42,259 bases of DNA from Thermodesulfovibrionales bacterium (GTDB lineage Bacteria; Nitrospirota; Thermodesulfovibrionia; Thermodesulfovibrionales; SM23-35): the NCBI GenBank assembly GCA_022865525.1, contig JALHSV010000526.1:1-42259 (forward strand). Direction: 5' to 3'. The notes below the pieces were generated by a model, which was not told the origin of the DNA, did no database searches, and was given only the letters and a program-made list of their open reading frames with translations. The translations under genes were made by a program, and so were the position numbers. This document shows, in pieces, positions 1 to 42,259 of the stretch (the stretch's first letter is position 1; each line of letters opens with the position of its first letter).

Positions 1-141
1 AGCGTTCTGATAAATCTTTTCTGCGCCTTCTCGCAATGCCTCCGGGCTTGGTGTTCGTGGCAAACTGAGGAAGCCGCCCTGCCTGGCCTTCTCTACCTTT
101 GGAGCTACTGCCCTCTGGAACGGAGCTATGGCTTTTTTAAT
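1..141. repeat. Terminal direct repeat identical to 42119-42259 (circular-contig overlap or terminal redundancy)
   Basis: Base-by-base comparison of both window ends shows 141/141 identity. Confidence 0.95.
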
Positions 142-2094
142 AGCTTCAGACGGGGCTTGGGGGGGCTGGGCTAAATCATAAACTTCTTTTGGTATCGTTC
201 TTAATTTCTTCCCATCTAATTTAACAATATATTCTTTAGTTGTTTCGCCCAAAGGTCTCGACGGGTCTATTGGTTTTTCTTCAATGTCAACTGATAATTC
301 TTTATCTTTTTGTATGACATCAACCATTTCGCGATAAGTGATTCTATTAGATGTTCCAAAGTCACCTTTCCTATCTTTAAGAAACGCCGCTATGTTATTT
401 CTATCGCGTGATATTGTTTCGTCTAACACCTTCCCCTTCTCGGCAGGCTGGGCTGCTCTAATGCGCAAGTTATGCTCTAAATGTCTGGCTGTGTTAATCA
501 GGTCGAATTGTTCTTCATATTGCAGTTTTTGGCCCCTTGAAGTTATGCTTGGTGGTTTGCCTGCAAATGCGTGAGCAATCTCCGGCCTATCCTTAATATC
601 GTTAATGATACTGGTAATGGTGTCTAAATCGTTGTCCGCAAACGCTTTGTCCAGAGCAGCGGATACTTGCATGACCTCGTTGTCCTTATCTCGTATTGCT
701 TTTAATTTATCAAGTTTGGCTTTGTTGTATGAATTTACTCTGTCAATATCTGATTGTGTAATACCTTGTTCCTCAAGCAGTTTTAGTGCGCCGGGCCTTA
801 ATGGTTGGAGTTCTTCTTCAAGTTCTTCGATTGTAGAACCTAATTCTTTTTCGGCCTTGATTAGTTCTGCCAATTTCTCTGCCTTCCCCTTCTCGGCAGG
901 CTGGGCTACTGGCCTCTCTATCATGCCAGAATCGACAATCGGGGCCTCTTTCGTGGATTTGCCCTTAGCAGGCACTTCGGCCACTGGCGAGGCTACTGTG
1001 GCCTCCTCGTAGGCTTGCCTGGTTGTTGTTAATGCTGTTTCGGGTATCGCTTCGGGCGGGGCGGTAACTAAAGGCTTAATCCCGAACTTGGTCTGAGAGA
1101 TCATCTGGTCAACCTGCTCGATGGATTCTCCGGCCTCAAGTCTTTTCAGTGCGTTCTGAGCTACATCCTTAGATACGCCCATCTGCTGTTGGATGTTATT
1201 AACGAAGTTACGCTTACTACCGGCCTTAATGACGTTGCCGGCGTCCATATTCCTAAGAGTATCCCTTGCGTTTATAACCTTATCGAAGCTGTTCCTCATT
1301 CCCTTAACTTTGTCGGGATGAAATTTCCGGGCCTGAATACGGGCGGCGGCGTTAATCTCGTCTAATGTCGCACCTTTTTTAAGGCCGAGAGTCTTTAGCG
1401 CTCTCGATTGTTCTGTCGGCTTGAGTTTCGACCATATAGCACCTGCACCAGAAGATGCAAAGCTGAGTATTGCCCCCATCGCAAAACTCTCAAGAAAGAC
1501 CTCGCCACCCCTTGAACCGAAGTCCTCGTTGTAGATAGCCTCGGCAGTTCTCTTGCGAGCTTCATCCGTAGCTGTGTGCGCAACAAATAACCCTCCTGTT
1601 TCAAGTGCTTTCATCCCTGCCGCTTCTAATTTAGTGGAATTTTTAAGAAGCGATGTCGTAGTTAAGCCAGCGCCCCGCATGAGACTTCCTAACCCGATAA
1701 GCTCGGTAACGGCCTCGGACATCTGGCCTGCCGCCCGGCCTATCTTTCCTGCTGTCGTTTTGGGTGGTGTAAACTTCTTACCTGCTAAAGCGGGTGCTCT
1801 GGTCTGTTCTAACCATCCCGCCCCAAATTCGCCTGTAAACTCAGCACCCGGACTCTTCCAAATAGCTGAATCAGGAGGCGAAGCCCATACGTCAAAAGCA
1901 CCGGAAATGCCGGGGTCTTGTTCTTGCGGTTCAGGCTTTACAGACTTTAGAAACTCATCGCCAGGGCCGTGTGAGTATTGCAAAGGCTGTAACGACTTTT
2001 CGTATTCCTGTCGGGACGGCCTCTGGACATTCGGTGTAGGCGTACTGAATGTTATCTTCTCATATTCTTTTCTGGTAGGTGCAGCAACCGTCAT
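1..2094 (-). CDS. N-terminal 698 codons of a ~1655-aa giant virion (internal/ejection-type) protein; the ORF leaves the window at base 1 and continues at 42118->39245
   Basis: The ATG at 2094-2092 overlaps the TGA of the upstream gene (ATGA). My hand translation of 2094->1 has no stop codon. The frame is continuous with ORF 39245..42181 through the 141-bp overlap (..FLSLPRTPSPEALREGAEKIYQNA..). Plus-strand ORFs here are low-complexity shadows. Confidence 0.8.
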   Translation of the reverse strand, partial: MTVAAPTRKEYEKITFSTPTPNVQRPSRQEYEKSLQPLQYSHGPGDEFLKSVKPEPQEQDPGISGAFDVWASPPDSAIWKSPGAEFTGEFGAGWLEQTRAPALAGKKFTPPKTTAGKIGRAAGQMSEAVTELIGLGSLMRGAGLTTTSLLKNSTKLEAAGMKALETGGLFVAHTATDEARKRTAEAIYNEDFGSRGGEVFLESFAMGAILSFASSGAGAIWSKLKPTEQSRALKTLGLKKGATLDEINAAARIQARKFHPDKVKGMRNSFDKVINARDTLRNMDAGNVIKAGSKRNFVNNIQQQMGVSKDVAQNALKRLEAGESIEQVDQMISQTKFGIKPLVTAPPEAIPETALTTTRQAYEEATVASPVAEVPAKGKSTKEAPIVDSGMIERPVAQPAEKGKAEKLAELIKAEKELGSTIEELEEELQPLRPGALKLLEEQGITQSDIDRVNSYNKAKLDKLKAIRDKDNEVMQVSAALDKAFADNDLDTITSIINDIKDRPEIAHAFAGKPPSITSRGQKLQYEEQFDLINTARHLEHNLRIRAAQPAEKGKVLDETISRDRNNIAAFLKDRKGDFGTSNRITYREMVDVIQKDKELSVDIEEKPIDPSRPLGETTKEYIVKLDGKKLRTIPKEVYDLAQPPQAPSEAIKKAIAPFQRAVAPKVEKARQGGFLSLPRTPSPEALREGAEKIYQNA
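429..454. repeat. 26-nt perfect direct repeat (copy 1) within the giant ORF, encoding AQPAEKGK
   Basis: ccttccccttctcggcaggctgggct is identical to 882-907. Confidence 0.9.
882..907. repeat. 26-nt perfect direct repeat (copy 2) within the giant ORF
   Basis: Identical to 429-454. Confidence 0.9.
1237..1419 (-). other. J-domain-like segment (HPD tripeptide encoded at 1320-1312) inside the giant ORF
   Basis: Hand translation gives PTEQSRALKTLGLKKGATLDEINAAARIQARKFHPDKVKGMRNSFDKVINARDTLRNMDAG. This fits the DnaJ J-domain layout: LG..kgA..dEI..A.r....k.HPDK, then F..i..A...L. Confidence 0.65.
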
Positions 2095-3035
2095 TTCTGT
2101 TTCCCGTACTCCGGCTTGTAATGCAGTTCAAACCATCGGTCTTTTTCTTCCTCAGACGATATATGGGCGAGAATGTCGTCAAACTCCGCCTTATTCTTAG
2201 GTGGCGGGTAACTATCGACACCATATACTCTTTTCTGTTGTTTTTCTGGTTGTGCGGTTTTTGGTTGTGTAGCTGGCGGTGGTTGACTCCCTGCTTTTTC
2301 AATTTCTGCGTCTATTTTCTTTGCCTTACCAACCCCCATCTTCTTACGGATTTCAGCTAATCTATCATTGGCAAGCTGTTCGCCTTCTACGTCCCTTGTT
2401 ATTGGCAGGCTTTGGCCTGTCGCTTGTGCGAGTATCTGGGACTGAACAGTGGCCGTATCAGAACCGGTTGCCCTTCTTTTAGCTTCCTGCCAATATCGGT
2501 ACTGGTCCTCTAATGAATCCGGCTCTTTTAACGTACCGCCTTCGGCCTCTATTCGTCCTTGAAATTCTCCATATTGTTCTTCAGGAACAAGTGCCTGCCG
2601 CTTCTTGCCGTCTTTGTCAAACCATGATGTTTGATATGAACGGCCTTTTGTCGGATTTAACCTTTTATCAGTCAGCGCCTTAGTAGATTCTATCCGGGCC
2701 TGTTTGTATTCCCTGTCAAGCGGGTCCTGAAATGCCTGCTGCATTAGCCCCTGGCCGACCTGTGCCTGCATCTGGGAAGGTGGGGCAAAGCTACTGGCTA
2801 TCTTCTGCAGGAAGCCTACTGAGCCCGTTGAGTATTGAGGCTGGTTCTGGGAGAGTGCCTGTGCTATTTCCTGCGGCCCGCCGCCTTGAGAGACTATATT
2901 TATCACCTTAGCGTTCAAAGACCGTTCCTGCCTTAATCCCTCGACCTTACCGATAGTTTCGAGAATATCGGCAATGGCATTGAACGAGCCTCCGTACTTT
3001 CCCTGAGGATTGGTCAAATCGACTATCTGCGGCAT
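2091..3035 (-). CDS. Internal-virion/ejection-type protein (hypothetical), 314 aa
   Basis: Long ORF, Q/G/A-rich and charged. It sits between another internal-type protein and the giant protein at the end of the structural operon, and its stop overlaps the next start (ATGA). Confidence 0.5.
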   Translation of the reverse strand: MPQIVDLTNPQGKYGGSFNAIADILETIGKVEGLRQERSLNAKVINIVSQGGGPQEIAQALSQNQPQYSTGSVGFLQKIASSFAPPSQMQAQVGQGLMQQAFQDPLDREYKQARIESTKALTDKRLNPTKGRSYQTSWFDKDGKKRQALVPEEQYGEFQGRIEAEGGTLKEPDSLEDQYRYWQEAKRRATGSDTATVQSQILAQATGQSLPITRDVEGEQLANDRLAEIRKKMGVGKAKKIDAEIEKAGSQPPPATQPKTAQPEKQQKRVYGVDSYPPPKNKAEFDDILAHISSEEEKDRWFELHYKPEYGKQK

Positions 3036-4421: not shown

Positions 4422-6031
4422 CCATCGTATTCGTAAGTAAAGATACAGCCGAGAAATTCAAAGGCTGTAGCCGCCTCTATTTTCATAAGTCCCGTTCTGA
4501 AACGTATGTCTATACCGCCCATATCGACTATTACTATGGCCGGATTATTCGAGTTTGTCATATCAATCGTACCGAGAGATTCCCAGCTTGACTCTTCATC
4601 TTCCTTAAAATATATCGTAGCCGAGCCTGTCGATTTACGGTTAAAGAAGAACCTTATCTCCTGACATCGCTTAAATTCTCCCAACGCCCCTTTATTGGCA
4701 AGGTCGGTACTGAGTACGAGCGAGGCTGTAAAGGCCGCCTGATTGTCCAGTCCAGCCGCGTGGTAGTCATAGGTATATCCGGAGTAATCCGAGCATAAGT
4801 CAAGCGAGAAGCCCGCTATGGCCTCTGTCGAGTCGATAGTTGTCCATCCGATACCGTCAATAGTGGAATATGGAATCGTATCGATAGTCCATGAGTTCTG
4901 CCGGGTATAGTTACCCCAGCAGCAGACGGTGAAATTATCAATCTCCCATATCCCCCTGTCCAAATTGAATCGTATGACCTTATCGTTTCCCGTCGAGCCC
5001 GGATCACCGGGTATCGTCCATGCAATCTGATTGTATTCGCTCAGGTACGCGGCGTCGATGTAATCTTGGTAAGTCTGGTTAATCTTCCTTATCGATACGT
5101 CTATGGCCTCGGATATTGCACCGAACCTTAATTTCCTGACAGCGTAGTCTGCACCGATATAATATAAATTCCCCTCAACGTCATTAGCCACCGAATGAGT
5201 CGCTAACAAGCCGCCGGTATTCGAGATTCTTTCGGTATTGAATACCGCATCGGCTTCGACCGTCCACATGAAATAATGCGAACTTCTAATATCGTCCTTA
5301 AAGACTACCAGAAGATTGGCGTCATTAGAGAGATAATGCCCGAACCCCTTGATATGGCCCGAGCCTTCAGAGAAGTCTTTAATATACGAATCGCCCGTCC
5401 CGCCGGTAGTCTGCCAGTCGGTCTCATCGTTCAGTGAGCAGGCCCGTACCCTTCTGGGGAATGTTGTTCCACCCTCCTGTGTGAATCCTATTATGAGTTT
5501 ATTATCGAAGGTTGTCAGATACTTTGCCTTAGTTACATAAGTCACTCCGCCGTCAGTATCGAGGCCGCTTACCGAGTCCAGCGGAGCAAAAGCGGTACCG
5601 GGAGTCGTTTCGTCCCATGCCTGAATCATATCGACCCAATTAGTCGCTACTACCAGACCCTTGAAACTCACGATGTCCCAAAGTACACAATCGCCCGAAC
5701 AAGTGAACATCGCCGTAAATGTTCCAGCCGACTGAGACCATAAATATATATGGGCTTTAGTTGCGCAAAAGAGATATTCCGTACCGTCGGAAGAATAGTG
5801 CCGGTGATACCTGATAATGGGATTAGCGTCAGTTACCTGAACCCTGTCATTCGAGCCGTCCAGAAGCTCTCTGAGCCGTCCCTGTATGCGCTGGGCGCGT
5901 CCGTAACGCAGCATGACATTCGTGGATTCCGCAGAATACGCTTTGTTCAGTTTTATCCTTGGCACATCTTCGCGCACACCTTGTATATCGTCGAATATGG
6001 CAAAGGAACGTTCCGTCATAGTATTTGGCAC
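4412..6031 (-). CDS. Large virion structural protein, possible beta-propeller tail nozzle/tubular-B-like, 539 aa
   Basis: 539-aa ORF with repeated beta-strand-rich W/G/D segments. Function inferred from size and position only. Confidence 0.45.
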   Translation of the reverse strand: MPNTMTERSFAIFDDIQGVREDVPRIKLNKAYSAESTNVMLRYGRAQRIQGRLRELLDGSNDRVQVTDANPIIRYHRHYSSDGTEYLFCATKAHIYLWSQSAGTFTAMFTCSGDCVLWDIVSFKGLVVATNWVDMIQAWDETTPGTAFAPLDSVSGLDTDGGVTYVTKAKYLTTFDNKLIIGFTQEGGTTFPRRVRACSLNDETDWQTTGGTGDSYIKDFSEGSGHIKGFGHYLSNDANLLVVFKDDIRSSHYFMWTVEADAVFNTERISNTGGLLATHSVANDVEGNLYYIGADYAVRKLRFGAISEAIDVSIRKINQTYQDYIDAAYLSEYNQIAWTIPGDPGSTGNDKVIRFNLDRGIWEIDNFTVCCWGNYTRQNSWTIDTIPYSTIDGIGWTTIDSTEAIAGFSLDLCSDYSGYTYDYHAAGLDNQAAFTASLVLSTDLANKGALGEFKRCQEIRFFFNRKSTGSATIYFKEDEESSWESLGTIDMTNSNNPAIVIVDMGGIDIRFRTGLMKIEAATAFEFLGCIFTYEYDGWL

Positions 6032-6059
6032 TTGACAGCCCCCCTTCCTTCGCTATAAT
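6032..6059 (+). promoter_or_regulatory. Consensus sigma70-type promoter (TTGACA-N16-TATAAT) driving the plus-strand HNH gene
   Basis: TTGACA at 6032-6037 and TATAAT at 6054-6059, about 70 nt upstream of the only plus-strand gene. Confidence 0.6.
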
Positions 6060-6129
6060 AAGACAAGCCAGAGACCGGTATGTAGCCGGAAACTGGCTCT
6101 AACCGCAACCAACTAATTAGGAGTTGATT

Positions 6130-6627
6130 ATGGCTGAACAAATCATAACAAAAACCTGCCGAACTTGCAAAGAAACAAAACCTCTTTCTGAGTTTTACAA
6201 ACACTCTACAAGCCGCGATGGATATAGAAGTGATTGTATAAAATGTAATTTGCAATACAAAAAACACTATGCCCAAACTCCAAACGGCAGAGTTAATCAC
6301 CTTAAAGCCAAAAGAAGATATAGCAAGACAGATAAATGTAAAGTAGCAAGAAAGCGATATAACAACAGCGAAAAAGGCAAATTGAATGCTCGATACCATG
6401 CCAAAAGATATTGTAAACAGCATCCTAATCGGGCCAAAGCCACTCATGTTGTAAATCATTCTGTCGAAAGAGGAGAACTTCCCCGGCCTAAGACCCTGCA
6501 ATGCCATTATGGAAATCATCCAGCCAGAGAATATCACCATTGGCACGGCTATGCGCCTGAGCATTGGCTTGACGTTGTTCCTATTTGCAAAAAATGCCAT
6601 GCTAAAACCTATAGCAAAAGTGCTTAA
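6130..6627 (+). CDS. HNH-type (homing) endonuclease; the only plus-strand gene
   Basis: AGGAG at 6119-6123 lies 6 nt before the ATG at 6130. N-terminal CxxC...CxxC Zn motifs and a C-terminal EYHHWHGY..HWLDVVPICKKCH HNH signature. AT-richer than its neighbours. Confidence 0.7.
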   Translation: MAEQIITKTCRTCKETKPLSEFYKHSTSRDGYRSDCIKCNLQYKKHYAQTPNGRVNHLKAKRRYSKTDKCKVARKRYNNSEKGKLNARYHAKRYCKQHPNRAKATHVVNHSVERGELPRPKTLQCHYGNHPAREYHHWHGYAPEHWLDVVPICKKCHAKTYSKSA

Positions 6628-6668
6628 TATAGCAAATTTCTGTTCTGTCGCTACTGGCATTTAATACC

Positions 6669-7714: not shown

Positions 7715-8320
7715 TTACCCCTTTACCACTCCGGGTTCTGTGTTCTGCGTTAATCTTCTCGTTTGTTTTTCACGTTCATACATTCCCTGCCACATCGAGG
7801 CGTACTTCATATTGCCCTGCATAGCGGATTTGAAATAGACCGTTCCGTACTTAATGGCATTTCTGAACTCATCGGAAAATTCTATTGCACTTACGTCCTG
7901 GGCGTGATACTTCCAGAACCAGATAGTTGTCGTATATGCCGCCCCTGGTGGTGTGTATAGATAAAACAACTTATTCTGCTCTGCGTACTGTCTCGGAACG
8001 CTTCTTAATCCCGAATTGAAGCTGACCATGAACTCTCGATATTCCCGCCAGGAAATTCTTGTCAGAGGGTTAAGGTCGTAGCTTCCGTCGTTCAGGATTA
8101 TCCCGCCGTCCATAAGACTTTTGAATAGTGCCGGGTACGCCAGTGTCGTACTCGTACTCGTAAGGGTCTGGGTAGTATCGGACGATTTCAGGAAGTTGTG
8201 ATTAGATAGATCGTCCAGACAGACCTGGAGGGCCTCGTCCAAGTCGGTAGCGCCAGCAGCTAAGGCGCTTTTACGGCATTGATTATAGAACTCAATGATT
8301 TCTGCTTTAGTTATTGCCAT
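7715..8320 (-). CDS. Virion structural protein (adaptor or tail-tubular-A-like candidate), 201 aa
   Basis: ORF in the tail module, about 200 aa. No diagnostic motif recognised. Confidence 0.4.
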
Positions 8321-8921
8321 TTTCTAATACCTTTACTCTTTTATTTAACTGGCTTAACTGTTCAAGGACAATCGACCAATCATTAGCCGCTACGCCTGGC
8401 TTACCCTGCGGTCCGGGCGGCCCTGGAATACCTTGACCAAGTTCACCCTTATCGCCCTTTTGTCCTTGTGGTCCCTCTGGTCCCTGTAGGCCTGTTTCCC
8501 CCTGTGGTCCTTGTGGGCCTGTTTCCCCGGCCAACCCTTGTTGTCCGGTTTCACCAACCGGCCCTTTTTCTCCCATCGGCCCCTGCGTTCCCCGTAAACC
8601 TGTCGGCCCTATCTCTCCGGTCGGTCCCGGTTCACCCTGTAATCCCTGTGGTCCTATCAGTCCAGCCGAACCTTGCTTACCGACCGGGCCTGCAACGCCT
8701 ATATTTCCCTTCGGTCCCTGTTCACCCTGCGGACCCTCTGGTCCCCGTTCTCCCTGTGGTCCTATCTCGCCTTTTTCGCCCTTCGGTCCTTGAGGCCCCA
8801 TCGGGCCGGAATCACCTTTGCGGGCTATAGTCAATTCCTTATCGCCCCAAAAGAGCTTCCCACCCTTAACGAGTAGCGTATTGAGTATTTCTTCTTTTTT
8901 AATTTTGCGGTTTTGTTTCAT
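8307..8921 (-). CDS. Collagen-like (G-X-Y repeat) fibre protein
   Basis: About 50 uninterrupted G-X-Y triplets ([30 protein letters not shown]...). I moved the start to the ATG at 8921 ([11 protein letters not shown]), just after the upstream stop at 8923-8925. Confidence 0.8.
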
Positions 8922-8922
8922 T

Positions 8923-9582
8923 TTACCCACCCGGCACGAAGCCTCTGCGTGTTCTGTGTTCGATTGAAAACTCGGCAATGACTAAATCCAGCGTCTGACC
9001 GAATATTACTACGTCTTTTCTGATAACTGTGTAATCGCTCTTTTTTGAATAGAACGTATTTGCGCTCAAATCTATTTCTACTTTGTGCTTTCCTGTTATC
9101 GAATCAAAGTCAAGGGTTTCGGTAACTCCTGTCGGGACGGTAACTTCACTTGTATTGCCGTCTTTATAGACTCTTATCGAACCTCCGGAAGCCGTAATCA
9201 TCCCCGACTCCCATGTGAAAGACAGAGTATCGTTTACTTTGAAATCTCCTATATATCCTCTGCCGGTCGCAAGCTGTTTCGTGTTTTCTTCCCGGCTCGA
9301 ACCATTCCACTCAAGGCCCTGAATACCAGCGAATACACCGCCAATTAAAAGGATTACGTCATACATTAGAGGATCGGTAATGTCGGCGTCAAAGTCTCCC
9401 ACATACCAATCTCCGCCTTTATCCACAAGCGCTATATCATAGTCGGCGTTTGTTCTGGCCCCTGTGCCGAAAGCCTCCCATACATTAGCAGCAGGATACC
9501 AGACAAAAAAATCGGACTTTCTGCGTATCACCGCTGTTAAGGTATTCCCGCTTGTAAATCCTGTTCTTATTTCATTACTCAT
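8923..9582 (-). CDS. Hypothetical structural protein, 219 aa
   Basis: ORF in the fibre cluster. No motif recognised. Confidence 0.45.
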
Positions 9583-26194: not shown

Positions 26195-27406
26195 CTATTT
26201 ATTAATGACTCCTTTCAGGGCTTGCGTTTCTTTTTTTAGAAGTCTCGTATCTTGCGAACCACAGAAACGGCAAAGTACGCCCGGAGTTACCAATTCTCGG
26301 TGTATTTGTGATTTTCCGCAATTCCGGCATTTGCGCCAACAACAATCAGGGCTTGCTAAAATAAGTTCTTTATTCTCGGCCTTCAGGTCGGCTATTTGCT
26401 GATTTATATTTACGTTTGCAAGTTCAAGTTCATCTTCTTTCGAGTGTAAGGCCGCACACACTTTTTCGTATGCTTGTGCAGTCGGGTATGGTTGCCTGTC
26501 GTGTGCGATTGCTAAATCTCGTTCTGCCTCTGCCGCTTCGAGCTTGGCTTGGGTTGCAAGATATATTTTGTTTACACTTTCGGCTTGAATGCAGACTTCT
26601 TCTATTCTCGCTTCTGCGGCTTCGAGCTTGGCCTCTGCCGCCTCTGCTCTGGCGATGAGCGCATCGATTGTTTCGTAAGCTATTCTGACTTGACCCTCTA
26701 AATGCTTGTTCTCTGCGTTTGCGGTGTCGAGGCGGTCGCAGACGGTATATATCATTGGGGTTATGTAGCCGATGGTCACAGATAATTTTTGTGGCTCTTT
26801 TTGCATAATTTGGTATGGCATTTCCATCACCATCTTTATTCTGCTGATTAACTCTGCATCGCCAGGCTCGACCTTTTTGTTATCTGTAACAATATGGTCA
26901 GGTATGCTGCTCACAGGATAAAACCTAATGTTTTTATCCCACTCAACTTTCCGCTCATCAGCAAGACGAGTAAAGCATTGCAGACAGATAATGTCATTTA
27001 TTTGAGACTTATGAACAGATAGCCGCCATATATAATTTGGCACCCAGAATCCAACCCTATTTACTTCATGGCACAAGGAACATATCTCTCTGTGAGCATG
27101 TCGAGTGGGCTCGACCTTTTTCTTAACGTCGGGAATATGGTTTGTGCAGTCGGGGCAGTTGTTGCAATCAGTCCCATTTTTAGCATAACGCTTACATTTG
27201 ATGCACTGCCATCCGTCTAATTTTAACACCAGTGTTGCGGCACAACAACTCGATACGAGTCTGCTTCCCCCGCAGGTCGGGCAAGGCTCTTCGAGCAGGA
27301 TTATCACCTTACTTATAGCCCAGAAAGTTGCCGCCCAATCATTTTCTTGATGAGCCTTTAACGCATTATTTAATCCTGCTTTTATTTGTTTTTCTTTTTC
27401 GGTCAT
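26195..27406 (-). CDS. Multi-zinc-ribbon plus coiled-coil protein, 403 aa (function unknown)
   Basis: CPTCGG..CIKC..CNNCPDC; CSLC...CLQC; a central KLEAAEA repeat coiled coil; C-terminal CRNCG...CRFCG. Confidence 0.5.
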   Translation of the reverse strand: MTEKEKQIKAGLNNALKAHQENDWAATFWAISKVIILLEEPCPTCGGSRLVSSCCAATLVLKLDGWQCIKCKRYAKNGTDCNNCPDCTNHIPDVKKKVEPTRHAHREICSLCHEVNRVGFWVPNYIWRLSVHKSQINDIICLQCFTRLADERKVEWDKNIRFYPVSSIPDHIVTDNKKVEPGDAELISRIKMVMEMPYQIMQKEPQKLSVTIGYITPMIYTVCDRLDTANAENKHLEGQVRIAYETIDALIARAEAAEAKLEAAEARIEEVCIQAESVNKIYLATQAKLEAAEAERDLAIAHDRQPYPTAQAYEKVCAALHSKEDELELANVNINQQIADLKAENKELILASPDCCWRKCRNCGKSQIHRELVTPGVLCRFCGSQDTRLLKKETQALKGVINK

Positions 27407-37227: not shown

Positions 37228-37476
37228 TCATTCTCCAATCTTCTTAGCTTCCGCGAGGGCTTGTTCTAAGCCACAAGTGCATTTGTTTGTATTATCAAAA
37301 AAGCCGTGACCATTTAGCAATATCCATTTCCCGCAATTCATGTATTTATGGTCGGCATATTCCACCAGCTTATCGTGGCTTGCCTTGAGCTTGTCAAATC
37401 GCTTGCATTGCTCGATATACATATTGTCTAATATCTCGTACTTGGCTATCAGCCTCTTTACATCAGTCATTCTCAT
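37228..37476 (-). CDS. Early paralog family member 3 (LKASHDKL ... ALAEAKKIGE), 82 aa
   Basis: Start moved to the ATG at 37476 (ATGA overlap with the upstream stop). Confidence 0.55.
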   Translation of the reverse strand: MRMTDVKRLIAKYEILDNMYIEQCKRFDKLKASHDKLVEYADHKYMNCGKWILLNGHGFFDNTNKCTCGLEQALAEAKKIGE

Positions 37477-37826
37477 AGTTTCTCCGCTTCTGCGAGGGCT
37501 TGATTGATTTGTATCATAGTTATTGCAATCGCCTCTGGTTCCGGTAATGGCCCCCTGCCTAATAAATGCTTTGCGCATTCTTCCAGACTTAAATCCGCAG
37601 CCTCTAACGCTTCCACCAGCCTGTCGTGGCTTGCCTTGAGCTGGCCTAAATAACAACCTTCTGTGCATCCAGCTTCATCATTTGAAAAACATATCGGGCA
37701 TCCGCCGTTTTGATAAAACTCTGTGGCGTGCTTCATCCAGTCATCGGATTCGAACTCAGCCTTAATACGGTCGTAATCTTTGCATTTTTCGACCATTCTA
37801 TTGAAATCTGTTATTCCGTCACTCAT
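37473..37826 (-). CDS. Early paralog family member 2 (LKASHDRL ... ALAEAEKL), 117 aa
   Basis: Shared motifs. The N-terminal part is Cys-rich (CPICF..GCTEGC). Confidence 0.55.
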   Translation of the reverse strand: MSDGITDFNRMVEKCKDYDRIKAEFESDDWMKHATEFYQNGGCPICFSNDEAGCTEGCYLGQLKASHDRLVEALEAADLSLEECAKHLLGRGPLPEPEAIAITMIQINQALAEAEKL

Positions 37827-37830
37827 AATC

Positions 37831-38160
37831 TCATTCTCCTATCTTCTTAGCCTCTTTGAGGGCTTGCTTATTGAAGTTTATTTGTATTTCTACTGATAAC
37901 CTATAATCGTCAGGCAAAACTGCCAAAACTGTTTTGAGCCGGTTAGTTGATGCCCTTACTTCCGTTTTTAGCCTATCGTGGCTTGCCTTGAGAGCGGCGT
38001 ATTCGGCTAATTGCACGGATTCCGCCATTCTTTTTCCTTTTAGAACAGCTTGGCCTATTTCACAATTTGGGCATATCTGGTCAGGAAGTTTATCGCCGGG
38101 AACTACTTCTGTGCCTTTGATAATTCCTGTATCTTTACAATAAAAACATTCATTACTCAT
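37831..38160 (-). CDS. Early paralog family member 1 (YAALKASHDRL ... ALKEAKKIGE), 109 aa
   Basis: Shared motifs. N-terminal CFYCKD...CPNC zinc-ribbon-like motif. Confidence 0.55.
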   Translation of the reverse strand: MSNECFYCKDTGIIKGTEVVPGDKLPDQICPNCEIGQAVLKGKRMAESVQLAEYAALKASHDRLKTEVRASTNRLKTVLAVLPDDYRLSVEIQINFNKQALKEAKKIGE

Positions 38161-38730: not shown

Positions 38731-38773
38731 GGCAAAAAGGGAAGGCTCCGGACCGTGTGGCCAGCCCGGAGCC
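38731..38773 (-). terminator. Rho-independent terminator ending the late operon
   Basis: Minus strand: GGCUCCGG-N14-CCGGAGCC followed by UUCCCUUUUU, 15 nt after the stop at 38788. Confidence 0.7.
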
Positions 38774-38787
38774 AGTGAAAGGAGCGA

Positions 38788-38979
38788 TTATTTTGGGTCT
38801 CCTTCGAGTAATATTCGTAAATTGTGAAGCGATCCGGTCTGGATCGCATTGAACTCATCAAGTGCCTCTTCCTTGGCAGTCGCCTCAAGAGGATATCGGG
38901 GCTTAATTTCCATCAGCCTGGTAACCGCTGTCTGGACCAAACCCTCGATGCAACTCAGATGGTACATATTCTTACTCAT
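38788..38979 (-). CDS. Hypothetical protein, 63 aa
   Basis: Last ORF of the late operon. Confidence 0.4.
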   Translation of the reverse strand: MSKNMYHLSCIEGLVQTAVTRLMEIKPRYPLEATAKEEALDEFNAIQTGSLHNLRILLEGDPK

Positions 38980-39232
38980 TATTTTTACGGACTTCCTTCA
39001 AAATCAAAGATATATTCTGTTCCATATTGTCGACTTTTTCCTCGAATTTTATCCGGTGCTCGGAGTTTCTACCGATTTCCGGCTTAATTTCCTTTATAGC
39101 ATCGGTGTTGTGTTGGACCTGCACCTTCGTTTCGCCCTGAAAGACGCCAACTGAGTTAATGGCGGCTAATGCCGTAATCACTACAGCAACTACCGTACCA
39201 ATAATCCACTTCCAAGTATTACCGTTTGTCAT
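38972..39232 (-). CDS. Membrane-anchored coiled-coil protein (spanin/holin-accessory candidate), 86 aa
   Basis: N-terminal TM segment WKWIIGTVVAVVITALAAINSVGVF, followed by a charged helical region. Confidence 0.45.
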   Translation of the reverse strand: MTNGNTWKWIIGTVVAVVITALAAINSVGVFQGETKVQVQHNTDAIKEIKPEIGRNSEHRIKFEEKVDNMEQNISLILKEVRKNNE

Positions 39233-39244
39233 TGTTGCTCTCCC

Positions 39245-42200
39245 TTATTTCATCTGTTTGTTTGCTTGCTGTGCCACTTTTAATCTCATCGAATCAACTT
39301 TTGCTAATCTTGCCCTTTTCTCTTTATCTGGTATATCCATTTTTATAATAGCCTCCGCTTGCTTATTCAATTTAGACAGGAGTTCGCGGGTCGTCTTCAT
39401 AATCGGCCCCTGTATTATCCCGGGATTTGCCTGCTTAAACTTTTCGGACTTAGCGTATTCCTGCTTTTCCTGTGGAGTCAAAGGCTTTACTGCCTGTTGT
39501 TCGGCGGTCGTTAAGGGTCTTTGCTCTTTTAGTTCCAACAACATATCCTGCTGTTGTTTTCTTGCTATAATGTCCTTATATATCTGGCTATATGTATCGT
39601 AGGCACTTATGACCTTACCGCTGTCCTCGTAGAAATCCTGAATCGACTGAGCCTGTGGGCCTGTAGGTGATCTGCCAACGAATGCTTTTACTACGGGTAT
39701 GTCAGCTAATTCTTTCGGCCTCGCAGGAGGTGCTTCGTCTTTCTTTATTGCGTTTATCAGCGCATCGGTTGCTTGTAAACCGTACCTGCCAGAACCGCCT
39801 GTCCATCCACTTATGAGATTCTCTATCTTTGCCGGACTGTAATTAAGCCATTCACCCATATACTTTGCCGATTCAGATGTGTAACGACTGTATTGGTATG
39901 CAGCGTCAAGGTCTTTCTTGCCTTCGGGAACGATTGGTCTTTCAAGGAAGAAATTGCGATTGCCCCAGTTTTCCATGATAGGCTTTAATGCGGTAGGCAA
40001 AAGGTTTCCTTCCGGCTCGCCACTGATAGGAGTCAGGCTTTCAATGATAGTATCGCCAAAGTCCTTAAATGCTTTCGGGTCCTTTGTAGCTAAATACTCC
40101 ATAAGTCTTTCAGGAAGTGAGCCGTATAACTGGCCCCAGAAAAACGGCTTTATTATATGGATAGGCGACTTGCCTTCTCGCATATACGTCCAGAACAAGT
40201 CTTTTCGCCATCGTGGTATTTCTTTATAATCCTTATTCTTGCGATTATGAAGGTATAAGAGTATTGAAGGAAGAGTAATTGCGGAAAAACCCTTAATGGC
40301 CGTCGATATAGGATGTCTATATGCAGTACGAACATTCTTATCAGCGCCCTGTATCCCCGCATTAAGAAAGGCCACCATACTATTAAGGTCCTTCATCTTT
40401 GCGCCACGCCGTTGAAAGTCAAGAGTACCCTCCCTGCTCTCGAATCCCGCCTCTATCGGGGTCTTGCCCGACTTAACCGCCCTCTTGAACATACCGACTC
40501 TCGTTGCCTGCTCCATTAGCTGAGACAAATCCTGCATAGTGGCTATTGGATTAAGCCTGGCTAACATTCTTCTGGCTCTTGTCGATGTGAGTTCTTTGGC
40601 CGCTTTTTTGAGTGATGGTCTGTTAAGCTCTACAAAGCCGGAATAAGCCCCGCCAGACCTCAGCCAATCATAATAAAGGTCTGTCCTGCCGAGAATATCC
40701 GCAATAGCACCCATCGAGTCATAGAACGGGATAAAGCCAAAAGAAGTCTGCATCAGTCCCGTCCACTGGTCACGGATAGGATTCCTTAATACAAACTCAG
40801 GCGTACTCGTAGCACCTATTCTCAGCCAGTGTGCAGGGTTAGACAGGATTTTTATAACCAGCGACGAACCTTCTTCGTTCAGTCCGGTCATTGCATCGTA
40901 AAGGTTTGGGCTTACCTCGATGTACTTCCGCTTGCCCTTATCGAAATACTCTATGACTTTGCCTTTAGGTGCGAATTGGGACGGCCTGAATATGGTACTC
41001 TCAACAGGTTCCTGTGAAATGATTACATTTTGCGTTTCTTTAATGACTTGCCGGATAGTCTCCGTCGTCATTTCAGGCGTTTCCGCAGATTCACCTTTTC
41101 TTATCTGATTGATAAAACTATTGGCTTCGCCTTCGCTGTACCCTCTTTTAGTCAATGATTCCCTGACCACCTTTTCGAGTTTCTTTATCGGGCCGGATAC
41201 ATCTGCACCCTTACCGCCTTCGGTCTTTATATCCCTAAATTCCTTCATTACCTTCGCAGAGTTTGTTCTGAACTCTCTCGATATGGTAAGTATCTCTTTC
41301 GGGTCAACCTTAATTGGCATCATCTTCACCCGAATAGGTCTTATATCTTCGGGCAGGGCTTTACCAAGTTTCGCTACGTTCCGGGCTACTGTATTCCTGT
41401 CAGCGGCTTCCATTATCCTGAAGGTATTTTTAATAATGCTCTCGATGGGGTCGTGTATCTCTTTCTCTGAGCCTTTTATCTTCTTAACGGGGGCGCGGGC
41501 TTTAGTGAATCGTCCCTTAGATACAGGAACTCCGCCGGCCATCTCGTCACCTAATACCCTATCGAAAGGTATGTAATGCTGATTCTTTGAAAGAATGCCG
41601 TCATACTGCTTCTGGGACAGGTTGCCGCCGTCAACTAACGTATGGAGTACCCTTTTTTGAAATTCATATAGACGCTGTGCGGAATCTTCTAATACCTCCA
41701 TCCCGGCCGGGCCGTACTTTTTCTTTAGTCTCTCCAAGTCCATCTTAGACTTTTGGACCTGTTCGTTACTAACTATATTCTGTTTCGACCAGTCACTTGC
41801 CGGTCTTTGCAGGTCAAGGATAGTCCTCTGTGATTCGAGGTAGGTCTTTAAGTCGGCCTTTCTTTTCTTGCGGGTCTTCTCAAATGGTTTACCTGCCGTA
41901 TCGTAATCGTCCAGGATAGGCTTTAAGCCTTCGCCGGTAATTTTATAAGTACCTTCGGGCATTATCTCGTAGGTTTTGTCCTCTAATACCGACTCCACTT
42001 TACGGCCTAATCCGAGGTAACTTCTCGCCCTTAATCCGGGGTTCTCTCCGGGCTTAATCTCCATACCTAACTTCTGAGCTTTCTTCGTAGTGTTCTCGAT
42101 AGAGGCGAATCGGTTGATAGCGTTCTGATAAATCTTTTCTGCGCCTTCTCGCAATGCCTCCGGGCTTGGTGTTCGTGGCAAACTGAGGAAGCCGCCCTGC

Positions 42201-42259
42201 CTGGCCTTCTCTACCTTTGGAGCTACTGCCCTCTGGAACGGAGCTATGGCTTTTTTAAT
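39245..42259 (-). CDS. C-terminal ~957 codons of the giant virion protein (same gene as 1..2094; open to the window end)
   Basis: The track ORF 39245..42181 begins at a TTG only because no start codon lies further upstream in the window. The frame stays open to 42259 and continues at 2094..1. Confidence 0.8.
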   Translation of the reverse strand: MKKAIAPFQRAVAPKVEKARQGGFLSLPRTPSPEALREGAEKIYQNAINRFASIENTTKKAQKLGMEIKPGENPGLRARSYLGLGRKVESVLEDKTYEIMPEGTYKITGEGLKPILDDYDTAGKPFEKTRKKRKADLKTYLESQRTILDLQRPASDWSKQNIVSNEQVQKSKMDLERLKKKYGPAGMEVLEDSAQRLYEFQKRVLHTLVDGGNLSQKQYDGILSKNQHYIPFDRVLGDEMAGGVPVSKGRFTKARAPVKKIKGSEKEIHDPIESIIKNTFRIMEAADRNTVARNVAKLGKALPEDIRPIRVKMMPIKVDPKEILTISREFRTNSAKVMKEFRDIKTEGGKGADVSGPIKKLEKVVRESLTKRGYSEGEANSFINQIRKGESAETPEMTTETIRQVIKETQNVIISQEPVESTIFRPSQFAPKGKVIEYFDKGKRKYIEVSPNLYDAMTGLNEEGSSLVIKILSNPAHWLRIGATSTPEFVLRNPIRDQWTGLMQTSFGFIPFYDSMGAIADILGRTDLYYDWLRSGGAYSGFVELNRPSLKKAAKELTSTRARRMLARLNPIATMQDLSQLMEQATRVGMFKRAVKSGKTPIEAGFESREGTLDFQRRGAKMKDLNSMVAFLNAGIQGADKNVRTAYRHPISTAIKGFSAITLPSILLYLHNRKNKDYKEIPRWRKDLFWTYMREGKSPIHIIKPFFWGQLYGSLPERLMEYLATKDPKAFKDFGDTIIESLTPISGEPEGNLLPTALKPIMENWGNRNFFLERPIVPEGKKDLDAAYQYSRYTSESAKYMGEWLNYSPAKIENLISGWTGGSGRYGLQATDALINAIKKDEAPPARPKELADIPVVKAFVGRSPTGPQAQSIQDFYEDSGKVISAYDTYSQIYKDIIARKQQQDMLLELKEQRPLTTAEQQAVKPLTPQEKQEYAKSEKFKQANPGIIQGPIMKTTRELLSKLNKQAEAIIKMDIPDKEKRARLAKVDSMRLKVAQQANKQMK
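42119..42259. repeat. Terminal direct repeat identical to 1-141
   Basis: 141/141 identity. Confidence 0.95.

Follow-up and report, generated by a model that had tools for sequence, protein, structure and literature searches.

A J-domain within a giant polyvalent protein of an uncultured podovirus-like phage

A J-domain docks on ATP-bound DnaK through its His-Pro-Asp (HPD) loop and helix II and triggers ATP hydrolysis, whereupon DnaK locks onto a nearby client segment. Why would such a domain be built into a giant protein encoded among the virion genes of a phage? This question is raised by contig JALHSV010000526.1 (assembly GCA_022865525.1, Thermodesulfovibrionales bacterium), which was analyzed over its whole stretch of 42,259 nucleotides, called the window here. 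A preliminary description of this DNA had placed a J-domain in a 1655-residue protein at the end of a block of structural genes and could match the arrangement to nothing described. In this study, sequence searches and a structural model securely identify the segment as a genuine J-domain, and the protein that holds it is, judged by its domains, a phage-type polyvalent protein of an uncultured podovirus. The combination suggests that the phage enlists host DnaK at entry.

The reconstructed giant protein and its J-domain

Nucleotides 1-141 of the window recur as an exact direct repeat of 141 nt at 42119-42259. Because both ends share this sequence, the terminal duplicate is read as assembly overlap of a circular contig with a true length of 42,118 nt. 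On the minus strand, the frame is open, with no stop, from 2094 down to position 1; when the ends are joined, it becomes a single open reading frame (ORF) of 1655 residues, which starts with the ATG at 2094, runs to 1, continues from 42118 to 39248 and stops at 39245-39247. The first part (1-2094, minus strand) encodes residues 1-698, and its start codon overlaps the stop codon of the upstream gene (ATGA); the second part (39245-42118, minus strand) continues position 1 across the junction with residues 699-1655 and the stop codon. Since the ORF spans the joined ends, the ORF lists of the linear window missed the gene. The joining is real and not an artefact, because the same junction sequence is read through uninterrupted in a relative, P0001 (1979 residues, 75% identical), on its own independent contig of 48.5 kb. 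The length of 1655 residues given in the preliminary description is thus backed by a continuous ORF and by this relative.

The minus-strand translation of 1237-1419 gives exactly the 61 residues quoted earlier, and the segment occupies residues 226-286, as expected for a domain said to lie about 230 residues into the protein. In the full-length protein, Pfam family PF00226 matches residues 234-282 with 27.9 bits (curated gathering cut-off, 27.8 bits), the match ending at profile position 55 of 63. The isolated 117 residues around the domain score 32.0 bits (E=1.4e-7), and all five relatives scanned pass the cut-off independently, with 28.9-37.2 bits. Moreover, a phmmer search of all PDB sequences returned J-domains exclusively, the best being RabJ/DNAJC27 and human Hsp40 (E=9e-6 to 3e-5), and the profile of the family itself recovers canonical J proteins at its J positions, which Pfam confirms with 50-101 bits. 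In an NCBIfam scan, the J part alone was matched, far under the equivalog cut-offs, and PADLOC gave no match.

The predicted fold agrees with these searches. The AlphaFold2 (AF2) model of the J part, computed from the alignment of the window protein and its relatives described below, with a predicted local distance difference test score (pLDDT) of 75-86, places helix I at residues 228-235, helix II at 244-258 and helix III at 267-282, with the HPD loop between helices II and III, so that the antiparallel helix II-HPD-helix III hairpin is present. Every one of the top 50 PDB matches found by Foldseek is a J-domain; most are local (51-57 columns; root-mean-square deviation (rmsd), 1.1-1.9 Å), and the DnaJ J-domain in complex with DnaK is one of them (5nro_B, rmsd 1.4 Å). 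With a significant PF00226 match and a predicted hairpin, the J-domain call of the preliminary description holds in both sequence and fold.

The domain recurs together with its surroundings. It follows a conserved N-terminal module (residues 95-225; 1420-1812, minus strand), which matches no known family, is predicted to be helical with low confidence and was found by profile search in giant proteins only. A word-indexed protein search returned 18 giants of 1309-1979 residues in which both parts are present; their contigs, of 40-52 kb, are phage-sized. A HMMER search of 1.84 billion cluster representatives with a profile of the two together gave 46 clusters at E<=1e-30; the full-length-looking members have 1100-2060 residues, and the module always lies at about residues 90-430. 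The pair marks a recognizable and rare family of giants, encoded by uncultured phages of 40-52 kb.

We aligned the window protein with the 18 relatives, which are 31-62% identical over the N-terminal module and J-domain region. The invariant columns include His, Pro, Asp and Lys, the Phe of helix III and the A-R..L of the same helix, and canonical J-domain positions are among them. The HPD codons (residues 259-261; 1312-1320, minus strand) are invariant in all 19 sequences. Helix II, taken as the 15 residues before HPD, has a net charge of +1 in the window protein and of +1 to +3 in 17 of the 19 sequences. Among the distant members that match over the whole module, 36 of 45 keep HPD, and the other nine have APD, QPG, YTD, RPD, KPS, RPN, SPD, NPT or NPD instead; PF00226 no longer matches either of the two scanned members with a degenerate HPD. 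As nine distant lineages keep the domain yet have lost HPD, the motif is not needed for the fold. That it is kept by 36 of 45 distant members and by every close relative argues for selection on the interaction with Hsp70.

It is true that the ORF becomes visible only once the window ends are joined and that the full-length Pfam score sits at the threshold, as one would expect of a chance motif or of a giant ORF created by joining contig ends. However, the same architecture occurs on independent contigs without any junction, the module is common to 46 clusters, and the fold and the reciprocal searches agree. The probability of a chance resemblance or an assembly artefact is therefore negligible, and we consider both ruled out by the junction-free relatives, their conservation and the fold and reciprocal matches.

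The polyvalent class, the gene block and the relatives

The class of the protein is indicated by its other end. A conserved C-terminal body (residues 1083-1529; 39626-40966, minus strand) matches phrog_9854 (E=4e-101) and is all-alpha in the model. It contains an LPD38 domain (PF18857, Pfam E=1.1e-43; residues 1327-1508; 39689-40234, minus strand), a signature of phage-type polyvalent proteins. The 2017 survey of this class describes giant proteins of several domains, whose genes accompany those of the virion and for which packaging and injection along with the DNA are predicted; the domains appended to them are taken to act once a new cell has been infected, and a zincin-like self-processing metallopeptidase is frequent in them but not universal (Iyer et al. 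2017, PMC5512222). The window protein carries an LPD domain and is encoded with the late genes of a portal-terminase phage. It comprises the J-domain, LPD38 and at least three unassigned modules, and no enzymatic domain was recognized: it differs from other polyvalent proteins in having no metallopeptidase (no Pfam peptidase match and no HEXXH motif), methylase, helicase or lysozyme domain, and it matches none of the PHROGs with an annotated function.

By tblastn, the C-terminal body has matches in 155 deposited phages, including Pelagibacter podophages, Bacillus Pagevirus, Vibrio phage VvAW1 ("DarB-like antirestriction") and coliphage Pondi. The described LPD38 polyvalent proteins gp69 of Burkholderia phage JC1 ("DarB-like"), phi24B gp47, VvAW1 gp01 and Palmer gp20 are likewise giant and multi-module, with LPD38 at the C-terminus, and their genes likewise come last among the large genes of the morphogenesis block in portal-terminase podoviruses; in contrast to the window protein, none of those described has a J-domain. 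JC1 gp69, with LPD38 at residues 4195-4401, was detected by mass spectrometry in purified virions (PMC9144972). Furthermore, the LPD38 giant gp47 of phi24B is abundant in the virion proteome but not seen in the reconstruction, and an ejection protein carried inside the capsid has been proposed for it (bioRxiv 10.64898/2026.04.10.717836). From these homologues, it is reasonable to infer that the window protein is virion-associated and packaged, so the label "virion-type" given to it earlier stands by homology only.

The gene block is consistent with this assignment. Upstream of the giant, the minus strand carries genes for the large terminase, portal, major head protein, SU10-type adaptor, a collagen-like fibre and tail-fibre-like proteins, and the genome looks like that of an uncultured short-tailed, podovirus-like phage. 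As the preliminary description had placed it, the giant closes this co-oriented block as its last large gene. The same placement is seen in the two relatives' contigs that we inspected, L001 and L003, where the gene is the last large one of a co-oriented block with fibre-like genes, and in Bacillus phage Palmer, whose homologue of 1678 residues likewise ends the structural block, directly ahead of the holin genes.

Outside these parts, the family is diverse. The remainders of the giants with the N-terminal module fall into at least ten BLAST-distinct C-terminal types. When these were compared with the LPD38 body by hhalign, a clear relation was seen for type K alone (99.9%), type E being doubtful (39%), and the notion of a single divergent family of C-terminal bodies was dropped. 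Two hallmark effector domains of polyvalent proteins occur among the relatives, GNAT in P0001 (residues 426-496) and ART-PolyVal in P0080. A central module is present in P0001 (residues ~700-1000), P0009 and P0014 and absent from the window protein; the Pfam listing of P0001 includes PF26092. In this group of relatives, the sequence VATDGRRMF may resemble sliding-clamp motifs.

In giants without a J-domain, a different helical insert of ~90 residues lies between similar flanks (..EQ.A.LK.. upstream and ..PDIV.RG.. downstream). This insert may reflect loss, replacement or extreme divergence of the J-domain. J-less giants of this kind are P0100, P0101, P0103-P0105, P0107-P0109, P0116, P0151 and P0155, and the pattern of their insert is ..FP...DTIRKNP...F.KQV....EQKAV.KHVAREAERRF..A.KNY..P.PDIV.

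The N-terminal module plus J-domain had no tblastn match in 50,697 deposited phage records, and neither did 18 kb of the window DNA, so there is no close cultured relative among these records. Three IMG/VR contigs contain it. In a collection of 185,579 species genomes, there was one member, L006 (CAZMWN010000002.1, a phage-sized contig of 37.7 kb), which is binned with a metagenome-assembled genome of an uncultured Pirellulales bacterium (Planctomycetota). In addition, Prosthecobacter sp. has an annotated LPD38 relative that lacks a J-domain. The two are weak hints at hosts of the Planctomycetes-Verrucomicrobia-Chlamydiae (PVC) group, too thin to name a host. One relative is annotated in the database as "curved DNA-binding protein CbpA", which indicates that automatic pipelines do see the domain.

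Possible roles of the J-domain

The reading that we prefer, with a probability of about 40%, is that the J-domain recruits host DnaK as the giant enters the cell, so that back-sliding and aggregation are prevented and the downstream modules are refolded. The idea put forward in the preliminary description, of DnaK being engaged at entry or used by the protein for its own refolding, is plausible in the same way and competes with a role in assembly. On the preferred reading, the giant would be synthesized late, enter the capsid and reach the cell together with the phage DNA. Since ejection would be through a podovirus tail, the passage would be largely unfolded, and the polypeptide would emerge as such from the narrow tail channel. 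The HPD loop and basic helix II would then dock on ATP-bound host DnaK and trigger ATP hydrolysis. As part of a very large polypeptide, the J-domain is best placed to load DnaK onto its own chain; DnaK would thus clamp neighboring segments of the same polypeptide in cis, prevent their back-sliding or aggregation, help to draw in the remainder and refold the modules. Ejection, DnaK binding and action in cis at entry are steps that we infer. In this proposal, the J-domain near the N-terminus would be a functional type-III J-domain.

Type-III J proteins offer a model for such loading. Mitochondrial Pam18/Tim14, Sec63 of the endoplasmic reticulum and E. coli DjlA are membrane-proximal type-III J proteins, which couple Hsp70 to translocation. 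Their J-domain likewise directly follows a hydrophobic helix, and by analogy they are a model for loading Hsp70 onto a polypeptide that emerges from a channel. There is no sequence relation beyond the J-domain, and the topology would differ, with the J-domain here on the translocating client itself instead of on the channel. The corresponding element of the window protein is a Gly/Ala/Ser-rich hydrophobic helix directly upstream of the J-domain (GGEVFLESFAMGAILSFASSGAGAIW; residues 196-221; 1432-1509, minus strand). The hydrophobic stretch of the preliminary description is therefore present, but it is not a clear transmembrane segment: its best 19-residue Kyte-Doolittle mean is 1.38 (residues 199-217), under the usual transmembrane threshold, and the equivalent helix in relatives bears charged residues.

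A stronger version of the preferred reading is that host Hsp70 acts as an import motor, with DnaK ratcheting or pulling the unfolded giant out of the tail channel and refolding it; by analogy, this is conceivable and rather unlikely. If true, it would be the bacterial-virus counterpart of the Pam18-mtHsp70 and Sec63-BiP translocation motors and a first molecular answer on the entry and refolding of very large encapsidated proteins. How podoviruses pass such proteins through a channel that is too narrow for folded domains, and how function returns, is poorly understood, and a conserved Hsp70-recruiting domain in one of them makes DnaK a concrete, testable host factor. Chaperone co-option would then join anti-restriction, ADP-ribosylation, acetylation, peptidoglycan attack and RNA polymerase in the polyvalent repertoire.

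The presumed role class of the giant is that of T7 gp14/gp15/gp16 and P22 gp7/gp20/gp16, which are encapsidated, tail-released and envelope-bridging, and its size is comparable to that of T7 gp16. Neither the giant nor its upstream genes showed similarity to these ejection proteins in Pfam or PHROGs. A relation of the LPD38 body to the T7 or P22 type was considered and left unsupported, the Foldseek search of the PDB being uninformative. To our knowledge, no T7 or P22 ejection protein carries a J-domain.

Several observations weigh against the preferred reading. The full-length PF00226 score lies only marginally above its cut-off. Of the four-helix fold that the preliminary description had proposed to look for, the hairpin is predicted but the fourth helix is not evident: after helix III, no confident helix is seen (pLDDT <50, model residues 193-206). 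The AF2 confidence of the N-terminal module is below 60, and the model of the LPD38 body (pLDDT 64.7) gave no meaningful Foldseek match in the PDB (best prob 0.08). The hydrophobic helix next to the J-domain is borderline and not a convincing membrane anchor, and the family has no cultured representative. About 20 further giants match the N-terminal module and not the J-domain, and nine members have a degenerate HPD; for this reason, the J-domain is accessory and not essential to the core role of the protein, and it behaves like an add-on to a conserved N-terminal scaffold. Finally, the sequence does not separate action at entry from late action in the producing cell.

The last point bears on a doubtful alternative, in which DnaK is recruited late to keep the newly made 1655-residue protein soluble or partly unfolded and competent for the procapsid, with no function after ejection. 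The gene is placed and expressed with the structural genes, a giant and largely helical or low-complexity protein is a plausible Hsp70 client, and a J-domain in cis would serve assembly as well as entry. In addition, free-standing J proteins of jumbo phages were predicted to recruit host Hsp70 for folding and assembly (Iyer and co-workers, PMC7824862). However, many related giants of similar size have no J-domain or no HPD, and the LPD38 giants of cultured phages have no J-domain, so the domain is not generally needed to assemble such proteins; the appended domains of polyvalent proteins are, moreover, interpreted in the main text of the survey as acting in the newly infected cell (PMC5512222). 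Even if the domain acted at assembly, the protein would be the first case found of a structural-block phage protein with its own co-chaperone.

We also consider it unlikely that the delivered J-domain acts in trans and diverts DnaK from its clients, for stabilization of the heat-shock sigma factor, phage replication or take-over, with no action on the giant itself. HopI1, a type III effector of Pseudomonas syringae that acts in plant chloroplasts and has its J-domain at the C-terminus, is a precedent: there, too, a J-domain is delivered by an injection machine to exploit the Hsp70 of the target, the two proteins being otherwise unrelated. Domains of polyvalent proteins are typically host-directed effectors, such as ART and GNAT, and the phage J protein Rki of RB43 binds DnaK and stabilizes sigma-32 (PMC3486835). 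Against such a role, one or few copies per virion would face many thousands of DnaK molecules, the J-domain is fixed beside the conserved N-terminal module and not shuffled like an effector cassette, and no substrate-binding region comparable to that of Rki is recognizable. It is still less probable that the fold is a packing or interaction module, as in Pam16, that does not stimulate Hsp70. The nine lineages that keep the domain with a degenerate HPD, the J-less relatives with another helical insert between the same flanks and the marginal Pfam score would fit this explanation, whereas the window protein and its 18 close relatives all have an intact HPDK motif and helix III Phe, helix II is net basic in 17 of these 19, and 36 of 45 distant members keep HPD despite a fold that tolerates its loss.

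Viral J-domains as such are known. Rki of RB43 (gene 057w) and other free-standing J proteins of phages and giant viruses likewise have HPD and are presumed or shown to engage DnaK or Hsp70, and helix IV is poorly conserved in Rki and not evident in the model of the window J-domain. Proteins of the Rki type are small and free-standing, with the J-domain at the N-terminus followed by a specific C-terminal part, whereas here the domain starts at residue 226 of a 1655-residue protein encoded in the late block. In the viral structure library BFVD, the J part matches by fold, among named entries, J-domain proteins or large-T-type helicases. Like Rki, the BFVD matches are small stand-alone proteins (91-474 residues), except for an 874-residue helicase, a 958-residue polyprotein fragment (not a J-domain) and nameless entries, and none is annotated as structural. 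The jumbo-phage survey from the group behind the 2017 survey reports only sporadic free-standing DnaJ co-chaperones (PMC7824862), and the main text of the 2017 survey mentions neither DnaJ, J domain nor Hsp70 (PMC5512222). Literature searches linking a J-domain or DnaJ with ejection, internal virion, DarB or polyvalent proteins found nothing relevant, in agreement with the earlier statement that a J-domain in such a giant is undescribed. Collectively, the giant adds a new module to the polyvalent phage proteins and a new context to the type-III J proteins and does not form a new category.

Further features of the giant and of the window

Between the J-domain and the C-terminal body, the giant contains a small helical segment (residues 287-340; 1075-1236, minus strand), which is conserved in the closest relatives only, and a recurring motif. 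AQPAEKGK occurs at residues 397-404 (883-906, minus strand), at a module boundary, and again at residues 548-555 (430-453, minus strand); a related linker, AQPPQAPS, lies at residues 642-649 (148-171, minus strand), just before the conserved C-terminal body. The motif AQP(A/P)..(E)(A/K)(G/K) is thus found three times (residues 397, 548 and 642), at apparent module boundaries, and AQP[PAT] occurs 11 times in 26 related giants, with ~2 expected from composition. These motifs could be flexible linkers or proteolytic processing sites. Residues ~400-470 (window ~685-895, minus strand) are 63% identical to a stretch of P0036, a protein of 2079 residues that has no J-domain and is otherwise unrelated; the common stretch reads ELIKAE.E.GSTIEELE..L.PL..GA.KLLEEQG.TQ..ID.V…KLDKLKAIRDK. 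This match points to module shuffling between polyvalent proteins.

Upstream of the giant, a gene for 314 residues (2091-3035, minus strand) matches no family and has a weak homologue in the same position beside relative P0002. The preliminary description had called the two genes upstream of the giant internal-virion-like; no internal-virion family in Pfam or PHROGs matches them, and the label is unsupported. Farther upstream on the minus strand, a protein of 201 residues (7715-8320) matches the SU10 adaptor family (PF24175, E=1.4e-10), which supports a podovirus-type head-to-tail connector, and the tail and fibre genes include one for a protein of 223 residues with a long collagen-like G-X-Y repeat (8307-8978; Pfam Collagen, E=1.6e-23).

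Directly downstream of the giant, an ORF of 86 residues (38972-39232, minus strand) has an N-terminal hydrophobic helix (WKWIIGTVVAVVITALAAINSVGVF) and no Pfam match. Bacillus phage Palmer has antiholin and holin genes at the equivalent position, and the 86-residue protein may, judged by position alone, be lysis- or holin-like. A strong terminator-like hairpin of 12 bp, with nine G-C pairs and a T-tail (38744-38773, minus strand), closes the late block. The giant therefore does lie before a late terminator (38773-38744), as described earlier, but not immediately, because the 86-residue ORF and one of 63 residues intervene.

No tRNA was found in the window. Three neighboring small minus-strand ORFs (37228-37668, 37473-37826 and 37831-38160) have a common C-terminal motif, LKASHD(R/K)L … QALAEA(K/E)K(I/L)(GE), and two of the three overlap, each in its own frame; either tandem paralogy or a repeated DNA segment may lie behind them. 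Between structural genes, an ORF of 214 residues (6016-6660, minus strand) is extremely hydrophobic and rich in Phe, Ile and Ser, and faces an ORF of 167 residues on the plus strand; a membrane protein and a gap without coding function are both conceivable here. Finally, a protein of 403 residues (26195-27406, minus strand), for which Pfam gave no match, has several CxxC pairs at both ends and an alanine/glutamate-rich, coiled-coil-like center (AEAKLEAAEARIEE…).

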